Virus record (IMG/VR): IMGVR_UViG_2897059268_000002
Location: 1 to 64,000 of that record
Length of the DNA: 64,000 nucleotides
Strand: one strand, 5' to 3'
From: a virus
Lineage: Duplodnaviria > Caudoviricetes
Position numbers and translations under genes: made by a program
Shown here: in pieces, positions 25,508-39,880 of the stretch
Position numbering within the stretch: the stretch's first letter is position 1
Layout of the letters: each line of letters opens with the position of its first letter
The notes under the pieces: model-generated
What the model saw: only the letters and a program-made list of their open reading frames with translations
The model's database searches: none
What the model was told of the DNA's origin: nothing

Positions 25508-26392
25508 ATGCCGACCAGCAACCAGCCCCACCTCGCCAGCGAGTCTCCACGCCAAGACAAGAGGCTTACCGGACTCCACATCCTGGCCATCGTGGTGCTC
25601 CCTCCCGTCCTCTTCGCACAGATCGTTCTCGCTGTTGAATTTGGCGATGACCTAGCTAACGCTATCCGGGACGGCAGTCCCATCGCGCAGGCCCTTGTGT
25701 TCGGCGGCGGGCTATCAGTCATGTGGCTAGCAAGCTTGCTAGCCGACAGCACTGACCCCGAAGAAGGCGAGAGCAGGCAACGTCTCACTCAAGCAGAGTC
25801 CGCTCTCACTGACGCTCTCCGCGGGAGCTTGGCCCACCAGCCGCACGACTCCCTCCCTGACCTGCAACGGTCAGAGGGCAGCGAAGCCTCAGATGGCAAC
25901 CGACCCCTCAGGCAAAGGCTCCTCGGGCTAGCAGAGTTATGGGAAGCTACCCACGCCCGCCTCGACCTTTACCACCACATCGCAACCGGCCAGGCCAAGA
26001 CGTCTTTCCGGAACGCCCAGGTCGCCATGGCCGCCGGCTTCTTCCTCCTGGTCGTCTTCGCTGGCATCGCCGTCTGGGCCAGCACCACCGCAGTCGCCAT
26101 CGTGGCCGGCGGGCTCGGCGCCGTATCCGCGGCCCTCGCCGGCTACGTCGCCAGAACGTTCATCCGCTCCCAGGAGTCCGCCGCCACCCACCTCCGGTCC
26201 TACTTCGACCAACCGCTCGAACTCTCCCGCTACCTTGCCGCGGAACGGTTGGTTGCCGACGGAGACCTCACCCAAGAACAGCGTGGGGAAATCCTCTCCG
26301 CCCTCGTCCAAGCCATGGTCGCCGGACCACAACCGCCAGCCCCAGCCCAGCCCGTCGTCCTCGCCTCCGTCCCAGGGCAACCAGGGGCGTGA
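25508..26392 (+). CDS. Membrane protein with TRADD-N-associated 2TM-like domain
   Basis: Four hydrophobic segments; LDLYHHIATGQAKTSFRNAQ-TM-TM-TFIRSQ. Confidence 0.65.
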   Translation: MPTSNQPHLASESPRQDKRLTGLHILAIVVLPPVLFAQIVLAVEFGDDLANAIRDGSPIAQALVFGGGLSVMWLASLLADSTDPEEGESRQRLTQAESALTDALRGSLAHQPHDSLPDLQRSEGSEASDGNRPLRQRLLGLAELWEATHARLDLYHHIATGQAKTSFRNAQVAMAAGFFLLVVFAGIAVWASTTAVAIVAGGLGAVSAALAGYVARTFIRSQESAATHLRSYFDQPLELSRYLAAERLVADGDLTQEQRGEILSALVQAMVAGPQPPAPAQPVVLASVPGQPGA

Positions 26393-26515
26393 GCGCCGAA
26401 GCAGGAGACCTGAGCACATCCCCCAGCCCAGCGAAGAGAACCCCTGCGAGTGACGCTCGGAGACACGCCGCCTGGCGTTCGCGGCGCTCCTGCCGAGAGC
26501 CACTAAGAAGCCAGC

Positions 26516-26905
26516 ATGAGCGAACCCTACGACTTCGACTTCGAGCTCCACGTTGCACTGCGTGAAGGCCTTGGGCGGCGATCCGAACGTAGCCACGGCG
26601 CCGTGGTCTTCGGTCAACTGGCCAAAGTCATCTACCAGCAGTTGGGGAGAGAGGACTCGCTCAGGTTCTTCCGGTGCGCCATCGCGGAAACTACAGCACC
26701 CGGAGAGCACGGCCGGTATCTGCTGCTCAGTGACCGGCTTTCCAGGGCGCTCTGGACCGAGTTCGGCGATGGCGAAGACGAGCGCGTAAACGCAGCTTGG
26801 CACATCTTCATCACCGCCCACAGAGTCGCAGGGGACCAGGAGGCTATCCGCGTGTCCCGATGCATCCTCGAAGCGCTGAGCGCCGAACACGTACACGCCG
26901 CGTGA
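26516..26905 (+). CDS. Hypothetical protein
   Basis: 129-aa ORF with protein-like composition. Confidence 0.5.
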   Translation: MSEPYDFDFELHVALREGLGRRSERSHGAVVFGQLAKVIYQQLGREDSLRFFRCAIAETTAPGEHGRYLLLSDRLSRALWTEFGDGEDERVNAAWHIFITAHRVAGDQEAIRVSRCILEALSAEHVHAA

Positions 26906-27039
26906 TGCAGAAGCCCTGCGGGTGGCCAGCAGAAAGGGCCGGCGGGGAACCACCTCGCCGACGCCTCCTGGACGGGTAGTGGGCAGGACCGGATACGGCC
27001 GGGCAGCACCAGCTGCCCGGCCGTAAGAATCCGCAGAGG

Positions 27040-27519
27040 TCAGGCGCCCGCCGAGGACTGAACCCCCGCAAGGGCCTCCTCGATCACACCCAAGAACTCG
27101 CCCGCCGCATCCTGCCGCCACGCCGTCGCATGCAGAAACGCCTCCGCCAGCTCGGCGAACCCGTTCCGCTCACCCGCCGCCCGTTCCAACGCCCTCGCCA
27201 CAGCAAACACTCGCCGCGACACCCGCTGCCGCTCCACCACCAGCTCCGCGAACGCCAACACCTCGGTCAGGGCGTGATCCGGCGACGCCTCCAGCACCAG
27301 ACCACCACGCTTGTCCCGGAAGAACGACAACGTCGACTCCCCGCCCGAGGAACTGTTCAGGCGCAGACTGATGCTGTGCTCCGCGGCGAACGCCCACAGC
27401 CTCGCGCCGACGTCCGCAGGCGAGGCCTGGGCCGGCGGCGGAGGGGGAACCGGGGCCGACAAGACCGAGGCGGAGGCGGGGGAGGACAGCACCGACGACT
27501 TGTTTCTTGTTACGCTCAC
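27040..27519 (-). CDS. Hypothetical protein
   Basis: GAAGAAGG RBS upstream on minus strand. Confidence 0.6.
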   Translation of the reverse strand: MSVTRNKSSVLSSPASASVLSAPVPPPPPAQASPADVGARLWAFAAEHSISLRLNSSSGGESTLSFFRDKRGGLVLEASPDHALTEVLAFAELVVERQRVSRRVFAVARALERAAGERNGFAELAEAFLHATAWRQDAAGEFLGVIEEALAGVQSSAGA

Positions 27520-27772
27520 GGATAGACCTTCTTCCTGAGACGGAGCGGGTTGAAGACCAGCTGGTGATGCGGCTGGTCCCGGCCCAGGCGCCTGATACGC
27601 GCCTGGGCCTCTTGCATGACCGGGGTGATAGCCCGGGGTACTGCGAGCGCCAGGTGATGAGCCCGACGTGGGATGAGACTAGATCGCGCCAAGAGACACC
27701 TAGCGCACGATGATCCGAAAATAGCTACCTCTCTCCTTGCAACTTTGACGGTTCCGACATGTTGGAAACCGC

Positions 27773-28397
27773 AGGTCAGAGATCAGATTGACCCTTTCAG
27801 GAAGTCGCTGACCTCCTAGCTTTTCACTTTGCTGGTGCCCGGATGATTGCCTAACTGGATTTCGGCAAGTACCTTCATCAGCCCGCAAAGCTGACCGAAA
27901 CCCGACCACGGCCACCGGCCAGCATGCGCACGGTCCCCGACTCGCGATGCCACGTGGAAGGAACTTAGTTCAGGACAGCCAGTGCGAGACGCTGGACCGG
28001 CCATCTCTCTCTGTAGTTTCCTGCATGTCTTAATAGACAGAACGCGCAGGTCAGAGGACTCATTATCCCCCTCGGTGGACCGCTGACCTCCGACTTCCTT
28101 CACCTTCCGTTGCGTATTCGCGTTTCGGTGTGGTCCCTTTTAGTGCAGTTTTGGCGTAAATCTGGAACCTGGAAGATGTGTCCGGAAAATGGTCCTGCTC
28201 CCAGTCGCGCGCCACCCAAACGGAGCGCCTTGAAGTTCGGTACGAGGGAGAGGCTAGACCCGGCCACCCCAACTCCCTTCTGAACCAAAGGTGAAGTAGA
28301 CACCCCGACCTCCACCCAACCCGCTCATCCGAGCGCGAGTCGAAGGATGCTTCGCAGGTCAGGGCATGATCCCTCCGGACCGGCGCGCCCCTGACCT
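27773..28397. repeat. Three AGGTCAG-N28-CTGACCT inverted pairs in non-coding DNA
   Basis: 27773-27814, 28048-28089 and 28356-28397; each preceded by CGC. Confidence 0.8.
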
Positions 28398-28624
28398 CGC
28401 ACAACCCCTCAACACGAGGCTCATTTGTCGCCAGAAACGTTGCTTGCGCCTCCGCAAAACACCACAACCCAGGCGCGACCGGGTTGGCCGTAAACCCTCA
28501 CTACAACCCCCATCCGTTCCGAGTGAGCCGACCATCAGGCAGCCGCAACCCCGTGCGGAGGAGGTGTGTATGAGGCGGCCACACCCAGACCAACGTGTCG
28601 GGCAGGTGCCGGGTTATGGACGAG

Positions 28625-29113
28625 TCAGGCAGCGGGGCGGAGGTCGGAGTTGTGGACGATGTTGTGCAGCGGGCGCTCTGACTTGATCGCGAGAGCTTCC
28701 GCAGCGAACGCCTCCGGCCGACTCCCGAACCACTCAATCGAGAAGTTCGCCACGTCCTGCCACCATGACTTGTCCTTCGCGTGCTCCGGCCAGCGGCGCA
28801 GCGGGTCGTCACTGATGCCGACGTAGAGGAGTTGCTGCGTGGTATCGCGAAGGCGGTAGACGGCCGTGGGAGCCGAGGGGAGGATCTTTCGTCGCCTGAC
28901 CGTGAGCACGTAGTTCAACGGGGAGTCGTAGTCCTCTGCAGGCTCATAGAAGATGCCGGGCCCTGCTGACTTGCAATGCTCCCTACCGGTGCCCAGGTAC
29001 TGCCAGTAGCGGAGGTACTCGGGGTAGAGCTCACGGAGGAACGGGTGAACACCTCCGGGGCGGATGGTGTCGTACAGGTCGTCGAGCGTGATGGGCTCGG
29101 ATAGTTCGGTCAC
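28625..29113 (-). CDS. GIY-YIG domain protein
   Basis: AVYRL...LLYVGIS...RRWPEH...E..AI...PLHN; AAAGGAG RBS. Confidence 0.78.
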   Translation of the reverse strand: MTELSEPITLDDLYDTIRPGGVHPFLRELYPEYLRYWQYLGTGREHCKSAGPGIFYEPAEDYDSPLNYVLTVRRRKILPSAPTAVYRLRDTTQQLLYVGISDDPLRRWPEHAKDKSWWQDVANFSIEWFGSRPEAFAAEALAIKSERPLHNIVHNSDLRPAA

Positions 29114-29187
29114 ACGAAGCTCCTTTCGGGCGCGGCAAAGGGTGGCGCCGAATGCGGACGGTGCCGCTTCGACTACTAGGAAGCGTA

Positions 29188-29211
29188 GCTCTATAGAGCA
29201 ATTGAAAGCTA
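29188..29211. promoter_or_regulatory. Candidate GntR operator 1 (GCTCTATAGAGC)
   Basis: Perfect palindrome; about 23 nt similar to the copy at 30137. Confidence 0.65.
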
Positions 29212-29281
29212 GTGGTTCTCGCGAGATCGGCTAGCCCGGTCGTTGACCAGGGGTGATGCGTAGCGGGTAGCGTTGCTCTAG

Positions 29282-30070
29282 ATGAATCCACCTATAGGAG
29301 CGCCCGTGGAACGCAAGGCCGGCGAACGCAAGTACAGAGAGGTCGCCGATGACCTGCGTCGGCGCATCGCTGAGGGGGAGTTCAGCGAGGGGCGCCGCAA
29401 GCTTCCCTCGGAGCGCGACCTCGTTGAGCAGTACAAGGCGATCACCACTTCGGCGATGACCATCCGCCAGGCCTTGTCTGTTCTGCGGGATGAAGGTCTT
29501 GTCGAGTCGCGCGTGGGCTCGGGGTGGTACGTCGCGGAGTGGAAGCCCATCGTCAGGAACGCCCTGGACCGGCTCTTTCCGGATCGGTGGGGCGAGGCGG
29601 AGTCCATGTGGGACGTCGACATCGAAGGTCGCCGGCTCGACGTAGAAGACCTGCGCGTTCAGTTCGCTCCGGCTCCACCTGAAGCCGCCCGCGTCCTCGG
29701 CGTTGGATCCAAGGTCAAGGTGTGGCACCGGGATCGCCGATACGTGGTGGACGGCGTGCCGGTCATGAGGGCCGCCTCCTACATCCCTGACGAGTTCGCT
29801 CGCGGCACCCAGATCACCGAGAGCGACACGGGGAAGGGTGGCGTCTACGCGAGGCTCCGCGAAGCAGGGCACGGACCTGTCAGCTTCCGTGAGCAGATGC
29901 GGGGCAGGCCTGCTACCGCAGCCGAGGTCGACGATCTCCGCCTGGCTAAGGGTGCGACCGTGATCGAGCAGCACAGGATCGCGAGACGTGAAGACGGCCG
30001 TGTCGTGGAGTGCAGCCGAATGATTCTGGACGCTTCTCGATACCTTCTTGTCTACGACTTCGAGGCCTGA
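29282..30070 (+). CDS. GntR/HutC-family regulator with UTRA domain (KorSA-like)
   Basis: KYREVADDLRRRI...KLPSERDL...TIRQALSVLRDEGLVESRVGSGWYV; UTRA-like C-terminus; precedes tra operon. Confidence 0.9.
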   Translation: MNPPIGAPVERKAGERKYREVADDLRRRIAEGEFSEGRRKLPSERDLVEQYKAITTSAMTIRQALSVLRDEGLVESRVGSGWYVAEWKPIVRNALDRLFPDRWGEAESMWDVDIEGRRLDVEDLRVQFAPAPPEAARVLGVGSKVKVWHRDRRYVVDGVPVMRAASYIPDEFARGTQITESDTGKGGVYARLREAGHGPVSFREQMRGRPATAAEVDDLRLAKGATVIEQHRIARREDGRVVECSRMILDASRYLLVYDFEA

Positions 30071-30081
30071 CCTGCGCTTTT

Positions 30082-30136: not shown

Positions 30137-30159
30137 CTCTATAGAGGCATTGATTGCTA
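30137..30159. promoter_or_regulatory. Candidate GntR operator 2 / transfer operon promoter
   Basis: CTCTATAGAGGCATTGATTGCTA versus CTCTATAGAGCAATTGAAAGCTA at 29189. Confidence 0.65.
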
Positions 30160-33954: not shown

Positions 33955-34533
33955 ATGAGCACTGCCGCCGACCAGGGATGGCCCTGGGCAGGGCCCCAGC
34001 CTTCCGTCCCGCCCCGCCCGCGTACTGAACCCACCAATGGCACCCGGCCGACCAGCGTGGACAACTCGAAGACGCGCACCGGCGGCGGGTTCAACCCGTC
34101 GATCGGGCTCGCCGTGAACAAGACCGTCGTGAACGGCAAGGGTGCCCCCGCGGCCCCCGGTGCCGGCGCCGCAGGCGGTACCGGGGGGAAGGTTCCCGGC
34201 TCCGACTTCATGTCCAACGAGGACATCCGCGCGTTCTGCGAGTACCTCCGCAAGGAGTCCCGGAACCGGGCCACCGAGCGGGCCATGGACGCCGACCACC
34301 TCGAAGCGGTCCTCCGCACCATCCCCGACGGGGGAGGCAGCCTCCACGGAGCCCGCGCCCGGGCCCGCCGGGTGTCCCGGTGGCTGCGGAAGGTCGCCGC
34401 CGCGGAGAAGAACATCCAGAAGTACAGCGCCATGATCTACGGCACGTTCGAGCGGGAGTACGAGTCCGACCTGCGGAAGGTCGGCAAGGGCCGCACCCAG
34501 CCGCCCCGCCCCACCAAGTTCGGCTGGCGCTAA
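33955..34533 (+). CDS. traA: Streptomyces plasmid transfer protein TraA-like
   Basis: DFMSNEDIRAFCE...ARARARRVSRWL; immediately upstream of traB. Confidence 0.65.
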   Translation: MSTAADQGWPWAGPQPSVPPRPRTEPTNGTRPTSVDNSKTRTGGGFNPSIGLAVNKTVVNGKGAPAAPGAGAAGGTGGKVPGSDFMSNEDIRAFCEYLRKESRNRATERAMDADHLEAVLRTIPDGGGSLHGARARARRVSRWLRKVAAAEKNIQKYSAMIYGTFEREYESDLRKVGKGRTQPPRPTKFGWR

Positions 34534-34568
34534 CCACCCCCGACCACCACCTGATCAGGAGTACACCC

Positions 34569-36566
34569 GTGGCTGACAGCCAGAAGGCCGACCTGTGGAA
34601 GGCCATCAAGCACCCCCGCATGAGGCCCTGGCTGACCGTTGCCGCCGAGGTCCCCGCCACCTTCGCCTCCCACCACTACTGGGGGAACTCCGTACCCGCC
34701 GCGATCGGCCTCACCGTCGCCGCAGGGGTACTCACCGCTGCCACCTGGTGGGCAGGCGAAGGAACCCGGCCCGGGCGGCGTATCCACGCCACCCTGTCCA
34801 CCGGCCTCGGCACCTCCTACCTCGTCGTCGGTACCGCCGTCGGCCCGTTCGACCCGGCGCTCGCCTCCACCCTCGTCATCGGCGGTGCCGTCGCCGCCGG
34901 GTCGTGGAACATCCGCCAGGCCCTCCGCGTCAACGTCGACCCGCAGAAGGCTGGCGGCAACGCCGAGACCGGGGTCCTCGTCAAGGCCATCGGCGAAGCC
35001 AAGGTCGCCCTCCGCGGCAAGCCGAAGATCGAACCCAACAAGGTCACCGCACCCCTCCAGCTGTCCGCCGGGCAGGTCACCTCCGACGACCTCGGGAACC
35101 GCATCAAGCACATCGCCGGTGAACTCGGCGTCTCCCCGACCAGCATCCGCGTCATCCCCGACCCCGACGACGCCGCCCGCGCCACCCTCGTTGTCGTACC
35201 CAAGGACGAACTGAAGCAGCCCACTCCCTGGCCCGGCCCATCCGCTCCGGGCGGCAGCATCACCGACCCCATCGTCATCGGCATCTACGAAGACGGCGAG
35301 GAAACCCGACTGTGGTTCCCCGCCGGCCCGGGGCGGAACGCCACCCACTTCCTCACTGCGGGCATGAACGGCTCCGGGAAGTCCGCTGGCCAGTCCGTTG
35401 CAATCGCCGAGGCCCTGACCCGCCGCGATGTCATCGTCTGGGCCGTTGACCCGTCCAAGGGCATGCAGACGTTCGCCCCGTTCCTGCCCCACCTCGACTG
35501 GGTCGAGATGACCGAGGCCGGCGGCAACGAGATGATCGACGCCCTCACTCAGGTCATCACCGCCCGCGCCAACACCCTCGGGCAGCACGGCTACAAGAAC
35601 TGGACCCCGCAGGCCCACGACCAGCTCGGCATGCCCTACCTGATCGTGTGGATCGAGGAGGCGGCCAAGTTCTTCCGCAACGGCACAGAGATGGAAGGCC
35701 TCGTCATGGAGGCCCGGTCCGCCGGGATCAGCGTCATCATCAGCCTCCAGCGGCCCTCCGCCACCAGCATGCCCACCGACGTCCGCGAGCAGCTCGGCGG
35801 TGCCATCTGCTTCGGCGTCAAGGGCTCCACCACCGCCGACATGGCGCTCCCCGACGACGTTCGCGACGCCGGCGCCCGCCCCGAAGCGTGGGAGAACCGC
35901 AAGCCCGGCTACGCCTACCTCGTCGCCCCCGGCGTCGACGAAGACCGGTACGCCACCCCGCTGCGTACCTACCTCATCGACGACGACCAGATCACCGGGG
36001 CGCTCTCGATCCTGCCCCGCACCCCCATCGACCCTGTTACCGCTGCCGCAGCCGGTGACGCCTACACCAACCGCACCCGATACGACGCTGACACCCCCCT
36101 GGCCAGCAACGACACTGACAGGCAGGAGAACGTCCTCATGAGCAAGGACGACAACGAGCAGGCCGAGAAGGCGCTGCTGGAGAAGCAGGTCGACCGGGAG
36201 ATCGACGCCATGGTCGGCGACGACCCCGACGACGACGGGTTCGTTCCCGACGTTGACGCCGAGCAGGAGATCGCCCCGGTGAGCGAGGTGTGGTCGTTCG
36301 GGCAGGCCAAGGCCCCCGTCGAGGAGAAGACGCCGGAGGCCGGCATGGAGGCCCTGATGGCGATGCTGGCCGAGTTCCGGGCGGAGGAGCGGGAGTTCAT
36401 CGGCCCGAAGGACTTCGGCCCGTTCGGGAAGGGGCAGCGCATCGGGAGGGCCCGTTCCTGGGTGTCAGGAACCCTCGGAGACCTGTCAGACGCCGGGATT
36501 CACCTGTCAGAAACGGACAAGCCGGGGGTGTACAGGCTGCTGTACCCGGAGCTGGCGGAGGTCTGA
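34569..36566 (+). CDS. traB: Conjugative DNA translocase TraB (FtsK/SpoIIIE family)
   Basis: N-terminal TM helices; Walker A AGMNGSGKS; DPSKG; Walker B LIVWIEEA; ARSAGISVIISLQRP; C-terminal wHTH. Confidence 0.88.
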   Translation: MADSQKADLWKAIKHPRMRPWLTVAAEVPATFASHHYWGNSVPAAIGLTVAAGVLTAATWWAGEGTRPGRRIHATLSTGLGTSYLVVGTAVGPFDPALASTLVIGGAVAAGSWNIRQALRVNVDPQKAGGNAETGVLVKAIGEAKVALRGKPKIEPNKVTAPLQLSAGQVTSDDLGNRIKHIAGELGVSPTSIRVIPDPDDAARATLVVVPKDELKQPTPWPGPSAPGGSITDPIVIGIYEDGEETRLWFPAGPGRNATHFLTAGMNGSGKSAGQSVAIAEALTRRDVIVWAVDPSKGMQTFAPFLPHLDWVEMTEAGGNEMIDALTQVITARANTLGQHGYKNWTPQAHDQLGMPYLIVWIEEAAKFFRNGTEMEGLVMEARSAGISVIISLQRPSATSMPTDVREQLGGAICFGVKGSTTADMALPDDVRDAGARPEAWENRKPGYAYLVAPGVDEDRYATPLRTYLIDDDQITGALSILPRTPIDPVTAAAAGDAYTNRTRYDADTPLASNDTDRQENVLMSKDDNEQAEKALLEKQVDREIDAMVGDDPDDDGFVPDVDAEQEIAPVSEVWSFGQAKAPVEEKTPEAGMEALMAMLAEFRAEEREFIGPKDFGPFGKGQRIGRARSWVSGTLGDLSDAGIHLSETDKPGVYRLLYPELAEV

Positions 36567-36743
36567 CACCTCGGGGTGTCAGCGCTGACACCCCCTCTGA
36601 CCTGCGGTGACACCGTTCTGACACGGTTCTGACACTCCGAAGGTGTCAGAACCGGTGTCAGAAGCCCTCCGGAGGGCTGATTCCTATAGGTCATGCGCGT
36701 GCGCGCGCGTGGCCGCCCCCGCGATGACACCCCAACCTGACAC
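36462..36743. repeat. clt-like locus: cluster of (T)CTGACAC / GTGTCAG(A) repeats
   Basis: About 12 copies; TTCTGACAC at 36616 and 36627; GTGTCAGAA at 36643 and 36655; palindrome at 36573-36594. Confidence 0.78.
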
Positions 36744-36756
36744 AGGAGACAAAACC

Positions 36757-37188
36757 GTGAAAAGCCCCGAAACGGACGGAGGTTGGGCCAAGGTACTCGC
36801 CGCCGCACTCCGCACCTGGACCACCGTCGACAACGACCCCGAACCCCCCGTCGCACGCCTCGAAATCCGCTACCCGCCCCACTGGGCGTTCACCTCCACC
36901 AACAACATCACCGCCCGCCAGCAAGCCCGGCTCCTCGCGTTCCTCCGCGACGACCTCGCCGAAAACCGGCCCGGACACTCCACCCCCGAACGCGCCGCCG
37001 CAGTCATCCACGGCCTCATCACCGAACACGCCGCCGCCGGCCACACCCGCATCACCACCGCAGACCTCGCCGAAGCCGCACCCCGCATCGGCCGGTCCCG
37101 AACCTGGATCGCCGCCCACATCACCGACCTCATCGACGACGGCGTCCTCCACGAAACCAGGCGCCCCGACACCTTCCGCATCAACTAG
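36757..37188 (+). CDS. Protein with TraB-like C-terminal winged helix
   Basis: IGRSRTWIAAHITDLIDDGVLHETRRPDTFRI aligns with the TraB C-terminus; AGGAG RBS. Confidence 0.7.
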   Translation: MKSPETDGGWAKVLAAALRTWTTVDNDPEPPVARLEIRYPPHWAFTSTNNITARQQARLLAFLRDDLAENRPGHSTPERAAAVIHGLITEHAAAGHTRITTADLAEAAPRIGRSRTWIAAHITDLIDDGVLHETRRPDTFRIN

Positions 37189-38530: not shown

Positions 38531-39071
38531 CGTGGCAGAGCCGCCGCACGGTTGCCACATCAACCGCTTGGCATATGACGTAGGCATAGTTACAGCGTGT
38601 GGGGCCGTGACTAGACCCACAACGCCACATCCTCCAAACGGGTGACGCCGTCACAGATTCAAGAACCGGAATTCGCTATGGACGTTGACTTAGCGTGTAC
38701 AAGTGAAACGCCCCAGCACGCCAGCGAACAACTGGCGAGCCGGGGCGCAGCAACGGGAGGAGGTCAGGAACGGATGAACCGAAGCACCTTGTCCCGCAAC
38801 AACCCGACACCAGCCGGGGCGTACACCGCGAACTTCAAGCACGCAACCAGCGTCACAGCCGGCCCGATTGCCAACCAGGGGTCCACCCCCTCCACGGCGA
38901 CCAACTCGGTGAACGACACGCCGCCCACCAACACCAACACCGAGTCGGTGGCCGGATGAGAACTGCGACCAGGCGCCGCCAGGTCGCGGCCAGAGGCATT
39001 AACTGATCGTTTCAGAATGAGTTGAGCCGTGGGTCTTGCGCTCGACGATCTTGGTCGGCAGGGTGTCCGGC

Positions 39072-39880
39072 GTGCGTGCTGATCTTGTTCCGGATGACCT
39101 GTGGGAGCGGGTGGCCCCGCTGCTGCCGCCCGCCCCCGAACGGCGCCATCGCCACCCGGGGCGGCTGCGTGTTCCCGATCGAGTGGCGCTCGCCGGCGTC
39201 TTGTATGTGCTGCGGACCGGTGTCGCGTGGCGTGACGTCCCCGCGGAGGCGGTGGGCTGTTCCGGAGTGACGGCCTGGCGCCGACTGCGGGACTGGACCG
39301 AGGCTGGTGTCTGGCCGCGCCTGCACGCGGCCCTGTTGACCGAGCTTCGCCGCGCCGGCCTGCTGGACCTGGACGACTGCTCCGTGGACGGATCGCACGT
39401 CCGGGCGCTCAAAGGGGGGACCACGTCGGACCCTCGCCCGTCGATCGGGCCCGCTCCGGCTCGAAGCACCACCTGATCGTCGACCGTCACGGAACCCCGC
39501 TCGCCGTCACGCTCACCGGCGGTAACCGGCACGACGTCACCCAGCTCCTTCCTCTGCTCGACGCCGTTCCGTCGATCCGGGGTCTGCGGGGGCGTCCCCG
39601 TCGCAAGCCCCGGCGTCTGTATGCCGACCGGGGCTACGACTTCGACAAGTACCGCCGCCTGCTGTGGAAGCGGGGCATCAAGCCGATGATCGCCCGGCGC
39701 GGCGTCGCCCACGGCTCCGGACTGGGCAAGGTGCGCTGGGTGGTCGAGCGCGCCTTCGCCTGGCTGCACCAGTTCAAACGACTCCGCACCCGCTACGAAC
39801 GACGCGCCGATCTCCACCAGGGCCTGCTCGAACTGGCCTGCAGCCTCATATGCCTGCGCCGCCTCCGAACTTCATTCTGA
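39072..39880 (+). CDS. IS5-family transposase in two frames joined by a -1 frameshift near 39411-39420
   Basis: DDLWERVAPLLP...YVLRTGVAWRDVP; AAAGGGGGGA slippery site; GSKHHLIVD, ADRGYD, RWVVERAFAWL. Confidence 0.9.

Follow-up and report, generated by a model that had tools for sequence, protein, structure and literature searches.

Candidate protein-binding half-sites in duplicated non-coding modules beside the transfer block of a Streptomyces prophage

The IMG/VR entry IMGVR_UViG_2897059268_000002 is a virus record of a Streptomyces prophage, which carries a plasmid-type transfer block between its phage genes. Within the first 64,000 nucleotides of this record (here called the window; the entire contig comprises 79,727 bases), the inverted pair AGGTCAG-N28-CTGACCT occurs three times in a non-coding stretch (27520-28620), at the junction of an accessory-gene slot and the Kor/TraB block of the prophage. 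The array is a real, selected and lineage-restricted cis-element. With a probability of roughly 0.5, the pairs can be read from their sequence as half-sites for a sequence-specific protein that are embedded in duplicated regulatory modules, i.e., as candidate sites for a DNA-binding protein controlling the region. Less support exists for RNA stems, for cassette junctions, and for a clt or partition role.

The three pairs are present as claimed in the initial annotation, at 27773-27814, 28048-28089, and 28356-28397, all on the + strand and with start-to-start distances of 275 and 308 bp. They are the only matches to AGGTCAG-N(20-40)-CTGACCT in the window, every gap measures 28 nt, and none of 100 dinucleotide-preserving shuffles of the window contained any match to this pattern (0/100). 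The arms can be extended to CGCAGGTCAG and CTGACCTC, each of which is found three times on the + strand of the contig and always within a unit. The units are arranged as follows:

Unit 1, 27770-27815, + strand: left arm CGCAGGTCAG at 27770-27779, 28-nt spacer, right arm CTGACCTC at 27808-27815
Unit 2, 28045-28090, + strand: left arm at 28045-28054, 28-nt spacer, right arm at 28083-28090
Unit 3, 28353-28398, + strand: left arm at 28353-28362, 28-nt spacer, right arm at 28391-28398

The surrounding stretch is, as also noted initially, non-coding and comparatively poor in G+C (59.8% in 27520-28620, 68.2% in the contig). A coding potential of the modules (~336 bp) was rejected, as stops occur in all six frames of each, and small open reading frames (ORFs) that begin or end at the arms are not conserved in relatives according to our reading of the alignments.

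Related arrays were recovered from five further IMG/VR records (G404 to G408) by pattern scans, and from two (G074, G113) of 401 Streptomyces species genomes, a tally that includes one unpublished genome (G133, used for the tally only). Gene order is constant in these relatives: a GIY-YIG nuclease gene is followed by the unit or units, an A-box, a leader, and a cargo gene. A GntR/TraB/Spd module of the conjugation type lies beside the modules in all six virus records. The number and the state of the units differ:

Window: three units
G406: two units (types U1 and U3), with the whole of module 2 absent
G404: one unit
G405: one unit and a second module, the hairpin of which is collapsed to CGCAGGTC-G-CTGACCTG
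G407: one unit (N29) and a second module with the left arm only
G408: one unit
G074: one unit (N29)
G113: left arm only

Across the 10 full units from seven genomes, the spacer is 28 nt long in eight and 29 nt in two. All 13 units, including the collapsed form and those with a left arm only, have an identical 9-mer core in the left arm (CGCAGGTCA), and this core stands without a right arm in the second module of G407 and in G113.

The initial annotation had tied the element to conservation in homologous prophages and to an enrichment of the 28-bp spacing in wider scans; the former was found, the latter was not, neither genus-wide in Streptomyces nor across prokaryotes among the matches listed. 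In a scan of one genome per prokaryote species, N=28 accounts for 6 of 120 among the matches listed, the peaks lie at other spacings, and no homologue was found. In metagenome contigs, N=28 accounts for 57 of 119 among the matches listed, an excess that stems from recurrent unrelated sequences (e.g., nine near-identical copies of one spacer); BLAST similarity to the window was not seen. The viral scan yielded 90 matches at 89 loci, 10 of them with N=28, and three of these 10 come from two homologous records. Finally, the 401 Streptomyces genomes contain 0-7 occurrences of AGGTCAG-N15-45-CTGACCT per genome, compared to 0-8 for the reversed control, and are represented among the matches listed mostly by long, perfect terminator hairpins. 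A BLAST search of 27520-28620 against plasmids and phages gave no match, and a search of prokaryote genomes for loci with the 159-aa cargo protein family confirmed none of 349 pattern matches. No description of the motif was found in searches of the literature on Streptomyces prophages, GntR, and lysogeny, and on pCQ4.

The question of what has been conserved, a sequence or a structure, can be addressed by comparing the units. A consensus fold of nine units (RNAalifold) contains only a 7-bp helix, in which none of the seven pairs shows compensated changes and a pair is disrupted in two cases (CTGACCA in G405, CGCAGGTCAA in G408); a third uncompensated arm change, CGCAGGTCAC, is found in the tenth unit (G074). 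Single units fold with a minimum free energy of -15 to -29 kcal/mol on either strand. Five of six folds have z-scores between -0.85 and -1.5, with at least 18 of 200 shuffles folding as well, and the minus-strand fold of unit 3 reaches z = -2.38 (3 of 200 shuffles as good). For the leader hairpin of the cargo gene, at a distance of 200 nt, three compensated versions are found (GGCCCAGGCGC/GCGCCTGGGCC, GGCCGGGCGG/CCGCCCGGCC, and GGCCCCAGCC/GGCTGGGGCC). A search of 26500-29500 against Rfam 15 with E up to 10 returned six chance-level matches, none of them at the units. Sequencing runs that contain this DNA numbered four, all with a small share of it and either DNA or unclassified; no RNA run was among them. 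The lack of covariation and an invariant 9-mer that is able to stand alone imply that the arms are kept as sequence. The early suggestion of a protein-binding geometry is supported by this pattern of arms conserved as sequence, a nearly fixed spacer, and no covarying base pair.

The units do not represent isolated 42-bp sites in unrelated surroundings, as first assumed. Alignment of 260-350 nt around each of them revealed three paralogous non-coding modules of ~300 bp with further boxes on both sides of the arms. Identity among the window's own units amounts to 100% in the arms, 54-61% in the 100-nt flanks, and 57-64% in the spacers. An A-box (CTAGATCnGGCCA) lies ~81-99 nt to the left of the arms and is followed by a B-box (CCTGCAACTTTGAC), a unit-specific palindrome, and the arms themselves, while an F-box (TTGCCTAATTGGATTTCGGTATGTAGCTTC) lies 27-39 nt to their right; unit 1 has it intact, unit 2 in degenerate form, and unit 3 lacks it:

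Module 1 (~260 bp), 27640-27900: A-box CTAGATCGCGCC at 27679; B-box/near-palindrome GGTTCCGACATGTTGGAAACC at 27750-27770; unit 1; F-box TTGCCT-17-TACCTT at 27847-27875
Module 2, 27901-28210: A-box-like TTAGTTCAGGAC at ~27965; palindrome TGTCTTAATAGACA at 28026-28039; unit 2; degenerate F-box from 28110
Module 3, 28211-28460: A-box CTAGACCCGGCC at 28254; unit 3; no recognisable F-box

The divergent spacers had been taken as a sign against recent duplication; the units are instead old tandem duplicates of whole modules, the copy number of which varies among relatives. In G406, the break points of the missing module 2 lie midway between hairpins, in homologous G-blocks (CCGGAA...) and outside the arms, as unequal homologous exchange between module ends would give. 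Jointly with the protein-binding reading, there is an even chance that the copy number shifts by unequal crossing-over of whole modules. The idea of cassette junctions at the arms does not agree with these breaks, which fall between modules. Iterons common to the spacers were not seen. An AT-rich 12-mer (GTCTTAATAGAC) occurs just to the left of unit 2 (28026-28039) and within the unit spacer of G405 (L376, ~8918).

Two of the boxes resemble promoters. On the minus strand, the A-box has the form TAnnnT in all nine aligned units as well as in G074 and G113, with differing letters (TAGTCT, TAGGTT, TAAGTT, TAGCGT, TAGTGT, and TAGCCT), and on the + strand the F-box has the sequence TTGCCT-17-TAGCTT. 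Right arm and F-box are separated by either 27/28 or 39 bp. In the proposed mechanism, the arms would act as double-stranded DNA, namely as two inverted half-sites with the core GCAGGTCAG for a sequence-specific protein, and the 28-bp spacer would serve as a linker that is constrained in length but free in sequence. Each module would then constitute a small divergent control region: the A-box (TGGC..G...-TAnnnT on the minus strand) might be the promoter of the cargo gene, ~150 nt above its start codon, the F-box (TTGCCT-17-TAGCTT on the + strand) a divergent promoter-like box for an opposing transcript, and occupancy of the arms might set the expression of both. The two distances between right arm and F-box differ by about one helical turn, as protein-polymerase contacts on one face of the helix would give.

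The A-box of unit 1 also contains an exact match (27682-27691, minus strand) to TGGCSNGWWY, one of nine exact matches in the 79.7-kb contig. This is the binding consensus of AdpA, which is described as loose (PMC3372375). The ten-mer precedes TAnnnT, and according to our reading with this loose consensus, further exact matches are present in unit U1 of G406 and in the units of G404, G405, G407, and G074, and the remaining units have one or two mismatches. An AdpA site in the A-box would link expression of the cargo to the A-factor/AdpA cascade of the host.

The arm motif also occurs outside the array. The 9-mer CGCAGGTCA is present in seven copies in the window, where 1.2 are expected, and 0 of 100 shuffles reach seven. 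In the six virus records (450 kb), 11 copies of the 10-mer lie outside the arrays, compared to a mean of 2.3 for 2000 words of the same composition, 1.95% of which reach 11 copies. These extra copies are mostly intergenic, just past gene ends. Two additional sites stand out in the window:

30067-30076, - strand: extra copy of the 10-mer (CTGACCTGCG on the + strand), which overlaps the gntR stop codon just before the gntR terminator
36559-36606, + strand: unit-like pair AGGTCTG-N31-CTGACCTGCG within a clt-like iteron field after traB

The copy at the end of gntR is kept in genome G314, though the last codons differ. A 12-mer, ACCGCAGGTCAG, is common to U1-type units and to the intergenic region after traB in four of the six records; there, G404 and G406 have it on the traB strand, the window and G405 on the opposite one. 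That the motif occurs in either orientation to traB favours its recognition as duplex DNA. The inverted partner of the 12-mer follows at N31 (window, G405) or N74 (G404), and G408 has a 7-mer pair at N96. The iterons after traB differ among the records (GTGTCAGA, CTGCTCAAC, CCCTGCCCCGA), the motif is constant. In the window, the clt-like field (36540-36760) starts in the traB stop codon and contains TGACAC seven times and GTGTCA three times, including four copies of TGACACC, the repeat footprinted by TraA in the clt locus of pWTY27 (PMC3583192).

Which protein might bind the arms? A GIY-YIG gene flanks the array in all eight genomes (the six virus records, G074, and G113), in constant orientation. 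Its catalytic columns (Tyr/Tyr-x-Gly/Arg/His/Glu/Asn) are invariant, and a structural model of the protein from the window matches the fold of the UvrC GIY-YIG domain; its N-terminal domain gave no fold match. In five of the eight genomes (G404, G405, G406, G408, and apparently G113), the GIY-YIG domain is fused at its C-terminus to a winged helix-turn-helix (wHTH) of the GntR type (PF00392). Four of these fusions, encoded at L375:7605-8159 (+), L376:9210-9845 (-), L377:9757-10779 (-), and L379:9731-10291 (+), match both Pfam domains, with the GntR match of G405 below the Pfam cut-off, while that of G113 is judged from search coverage alone (the match spans residues 1-159 of a fusion query). 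The GIY-YIG gene of G074 is short, and its match covers the GIY-YIG part only. The fused proteins may be sequence-directed nucleases or nuclease-derived regulators, and wHTH domains are encoded beside the array in all six virus records. GntR-family operators consist of inverted GT...AC half-sites a few bases apart, typically with a GGTC/GACC core. The arms hold GGTC and GACC, with 34 bases between GGT and ACC; a close spacing is found only in the collapsed unit of G405 (AGGTC-GCT-GACCT). The neighbouring GIY-YIG protein, or its wHTH partner, would be the prime suspect as arm binder.

The standalone GntR protein is an unlikely arm binder, since its probable operator lies elsewhere, the recognition helices differ among the records, and the proteins share only 27-45% identity. 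A palindrome, CTCTATAGAG, flanks gntR on both sides (29189-29198 and 30137-30146), and CCTATAGG is found before the gntR start (about 29290-29292) and in the intergenic region between traB and spd (36682-36684); four of the five CTATAG sequences in the contig belong to this set. The CTCTATAGAG/CCTATAGG sites are probably the operators of a Kor-like GntR protein.

Other sites near GIY-YIG genes were noted. In G037 (L401:2076-2185), four copies of the palindrome GGTGTAGCTACACC lie ~30-45 bp apart beside another GIY-YIG homologue, a similar setting with another kind of operator-like array. G074 and G113 have a common site, TGCAGGTCAGC, beside AACTACTGGACTACGGTCC, just upstream of their GIY-YIG genes (L432:1340-1380; L440, minus strand, ~1848), and TGCAGGTCAGC may be a further candidate binding site of the same factor.

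Several observations weigh against protein-binding half-sites in regulatory modules, or against individual parts of this model. The GIY-YIG proteins of the window and of G407 have unrelated N-terminal extensions and lack the wHTH, yet the arms in these genomes are intact, and 15 of 17 loci with GIY-YIG homologues in the 401 Streptomyces genomes have no unit within 1.5 kb. Besides GIY-YIG, the only array-proximal protein kept in all six records is the divergent GntR protein (27-45% identity), and its likely operators, CTCTATAGAG and CCTATAGG, are absent from the array. A perfect invariance over 17 arm bases is stricter than in most operators, and the spacings of 31, 74, or 96 near traB imply that a strict 28-bp geometry does not hold everywhere. 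Outside the arrays, the 10-mer shows a modest enrichment, as about 2% of control words equal it and two of the sites are orthologous. Concerning the promoters, a sigma-70 scan of 26900-29300 returned no site, so that the promoter-like boxes fail, and their reading depends on TAnnnT, the loose rule for actinobacterial -10 elements.

Among the rival explanations, it is unlikely that the pairs are stems in a transcript that are recognised as RNA, be it in a long cargo leader, in small RNAs, or as processing or termination signals. Every unit is able to fold on both strands, the + strand spacers of the window hold pyrimidine-rich cores resembling anti-Shine-Dalgarno sequences (CCCTTTC, TCCCCCTC, and TCCCTCC), several of the extra 10-mer copies just past gene ends open hairpins of various loop sizes, and G405 and G408 have a further perfect hairpin directly after the right arm. 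However, five of the six folds are no better than shuffles, the three arm changes in 10 units each break a pair, and the Rfam matches are at chance level; the C-rich cores are missing from the spacers of G405, G408, and G074, the terminators on both sides would shield the array from read-through, and inverting the motif relative to traB changes an RNA sequence but leaves a DNA site the same. The initial proposal of repeated stems in an RNA leader of the gene at 27519 is weak: the stems do not covary, CGCAGGTCA is invariant in 13 units, and the true leader hairpin of this gene does covary. Still less probable is the idea that the array has no present function and represents a decaying tandem duplication with arms alike by gene conversion or by chance. 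The family is indeed small (eight genomes), the units are lineage-restricted, and some are degenerate, but conversion would have homogenised the flanks and spacers too, which are 54-64% identical, and conservation of the arms extends to distant relatives (G074, G408) and to two other loci.

It is equally doubtful that the units are nuclease targets, where two GIY-YIG(-wHTH) monomers would occupy the inverted half-sites and introduce a nick or a cut within the spacer, and likewise at the gntR end and the clt region. The constant neighbourhood of a GIY-YIG gene with invariant catalytic columns and a UvrC-like fold, the wHTH fusions, the GGTC/GACC core with the operator-like collapsed unit of G405, and the combination of strict sites with a fixed but free spacer, as expected of paired-monomer nucleases, are all consistent with this idea. 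It is nevertheless rated low because the enzyme of the window (like that of G407) lacks the wHTH and most homologues elsewhere have no unit nearby; moreover, there are no signs of cleavage, and a rationale for a phage cutting its own DNA is purely speculative. A role in transfer or segregation, in which the units would be additional clt-like or centromere-like sites used by the TraB-type translocase or by a partition system, appears very improbable. The 10-mer does fall within the clt-like field after traB, and both direct and inverted repeats are found in the clt loci of Streptomyces plasmids (PMC3583192). On the other hand, the TraB iteron (TGACAC/GTGTCA) has 10 copies in 36500-36760 and none in 27520-28620, TraB proteins and iterons vary among the records while the arms are constant, the clt regions of pWTY27 and pCQ4 do not contain the arm motif, and no ParA or ParB was detected among the ORFs scanned, which do not cover every ORF. 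Moreover, the positional feature of clt loci, beside or overlapping the 3' end of traB, applies only to the pair at 36559-36606; the units lie 6.5-7 kb upstream of the traB start. Least credible are recombination sites or cassette junctions, either integron-like or as att-like 42-bp sites of a serine recombinase. Copy number varies from one to three, one unit is cut at the left arm (G407) and one is collapsed (G405), and 42 bp with outer inverted arms is the size of a serine-integrase att site. Yet the loss of module 2 in G406 broke midway between hairpins in homologous G-blocks, the array has no GTTRRRY core, the modules are homologous to each other, unlike cassettes, and the only recombinase-type match among the scanned ORFs is a weak one, at the Pfam cut-off, of ORF 1-1284 to the N-terminal SAM-like domain of phage integrases. 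The serine-recombinase idea was rejected, as no such enzyme was found among the scanned ORFs, a set that leaves aside the region beyond 57.3 kb and many small ORFs. A link of the units to ParB, Lsr2, or a recombinase could not be shown.

The half-sites, read as protein-binding, are placed in the only leftward-transcribed island of the region, which comprises the following features:

28625-29113, - strand: GIY-YIG nuclease gene, which adjoins the array in all relatives
28465-28486, - strand: hairpin and T run resembling an intrinsic terminator, located after the GIY-YIG gene and oriented toward the array; the same sequence region is kept in G406
27520-27640, - strand: conserved leader of the cargo gene with strong hairpins, of which GGCCCAGGCGC/GCGCCTGGGCC at 27581-27609 covaries in relatives
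27040-27519, - strand: cargo gene, 159 aa, without a Pfam or PHROG family

A further hairpin lies at 26997-27027, beyond which a rightward ORF (25508-26392) is aimed at the island. The leader hairpin at 27581-27609 has a T-rich tail on the + strand only and looks like a terminator that would shield the array from rightward read-through while lying within the 5' untranslated region of the leftward cargo gene. The terminators that face inward from either side imply that the array has its own promoters.

The cargo proteins of the six virus records share a Pro-rich N-terminus (VLSAPVPPxPPAP), followed either by the domain of the 159-aa protein (window, G406, G407) or by DUF6907 (Pfam matches in G404, G405, and G408). 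The cargo of G074 begins with a comparable Pro-rich stretch and is a DUF6907 protein by our reading of its sequence. The cargo slot is polymorphic with a common leader, and the mosaic joint falls within the coding region. The 159-aa protein has 16 matches, only in strains of the S. griseus clade, 14 of them with 72-96% identity. For DUF6907, no paper was found in the full-text literature.

The conjugation module that had been noted beside the array is real and comprises a TraB homologue, the clt-like iteron field, an Spd-like gene, and the gntR gene. The latter (29282-30070) encodes a GntR/UTRA regulator, and the plasmid-like block also contains a gene for an HTH_17 protein. The 728-aa product of traB (34380-36566) is 71-73% identical to the annotated TraB proteins of the Streptomyces plasmids NC_019307 (pCQ4) and NC_013449; its identity to the TraB protein of pWTY27 is 37%. 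A membrane protein with two helices, of the Spd kind according to our reading of the sequence, is present in all relatives. A DUF4096 ORF (transposase domain of the IS4/IS5 type) was noted within the plasmid-like block at 39036-39476 (+). The contig further encodes an antirepressor-like protein, a nuclease, a methylase, and DnaB, as well as the small and large terminase subunits and a portal protein at 53-57 kb; terminase and portal genes are also present in the inspected stretch of the pCQ4 record. The prophage thus has the appearance of a phage that carries the transfer module of a plasmid, and its TraB block resembles that of pCQ4. In pCQ4 (L398:2700-2860), about five repeats of the CAGTCCCCCCGTG type lie between a hypothetical gene and an HNH endonuclease gene, a position analogous to that of the array, and may be an iteron field of this plasmid-phage.

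If the arms are the sites of a dedicated protein, they would form a compact control element, simple to test, of a little-studied class of prophages, namely Streptomyces prophages that carry a plasmid-type TraB/clt/Spd module and are related to pCQ4. The element links the putative promoter region of the polymorphic cargo gene, the end of a Kor-like repressor gene, and the clt region, always in the presence of a GIY-YIG gene, and could show how phage-plasmid hybrids couple lysogeny, transfer, and the expression of accessory genes; it could also address whether DNA is processed before TraB-type transfer. If the arms were nuclease targets, they would represent a natural counterpart of engineered paired-monomer nucleases, and action at the copy in the clt field could generate a processed DNA end for TraB-driven transfer of the phage-plasmid, or alternatively drive the exchange of cargo genes between co-resident elements. 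A merely lineage-specific operator would be of local interest.

Among known systems, dispersed phage operators, such as the stoperators of mycobacteriophages and the conserved inverted repeats of phiC31, share with the arms a short, invariant, phage-specific motif at several intergenic places; the present motif differs from them in its very low copy number (six in this contig), its restriction to one regulatory module, and its widely spaced arms. Integron attC arrays are likewise built from tandem units that shift in copy number and have a variable centre between inverted outer arms of 7 bp, but here no integron integrase was found among the scanned ORFs, GTTRRRY cores are lacking, the units are homologous, and gain or loss occurs outside the arms. 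I-TevI is a modular GIY-YIG endonuclease with a separate DNA-binding domain that also acts as an autorepressor at its operator. The array resembles this system in a GIY-YIG domain joined to a variable DNA-binding module (a GntR wHTH in relatives) and in a gene next to possible sites; in contrast, no intron or homing context is evident, and paired inverted half-sites with a fixed spacer are not known to be a feature of I-TevI. With clt loci, the field at 36540-36760 shares the position beside the 3' end of traB, the TGACACC repeat of the pWTY27 type, and one unit-like pair inside, whereas the three units, 6.5-7 kb upstream of the traB start, are without the TraB iteron. Finally, the kil/kor operator regions of Streptomyces conjugative plasmids and actinomycete integrative and conjugative elements are controlled by GntR-family repressors (KorA/TraR/KorSA). 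Unlike in these regions, the half-sites of the array are 28 bp apart rather than adjacent and lie in tandem modules of ~300 bp, and the arms are invariant though the GntR proteins are 27-45% identical and their likely operator is another palindrome, CTCTATAGAG. As in kil/kor regions, a non-coding control region is found beside a GntR gene and a TraB-type transfer module, inverted-repeat sites recur at several promoters or gene ends of the module, and the half-site core is GGTC/GACC.

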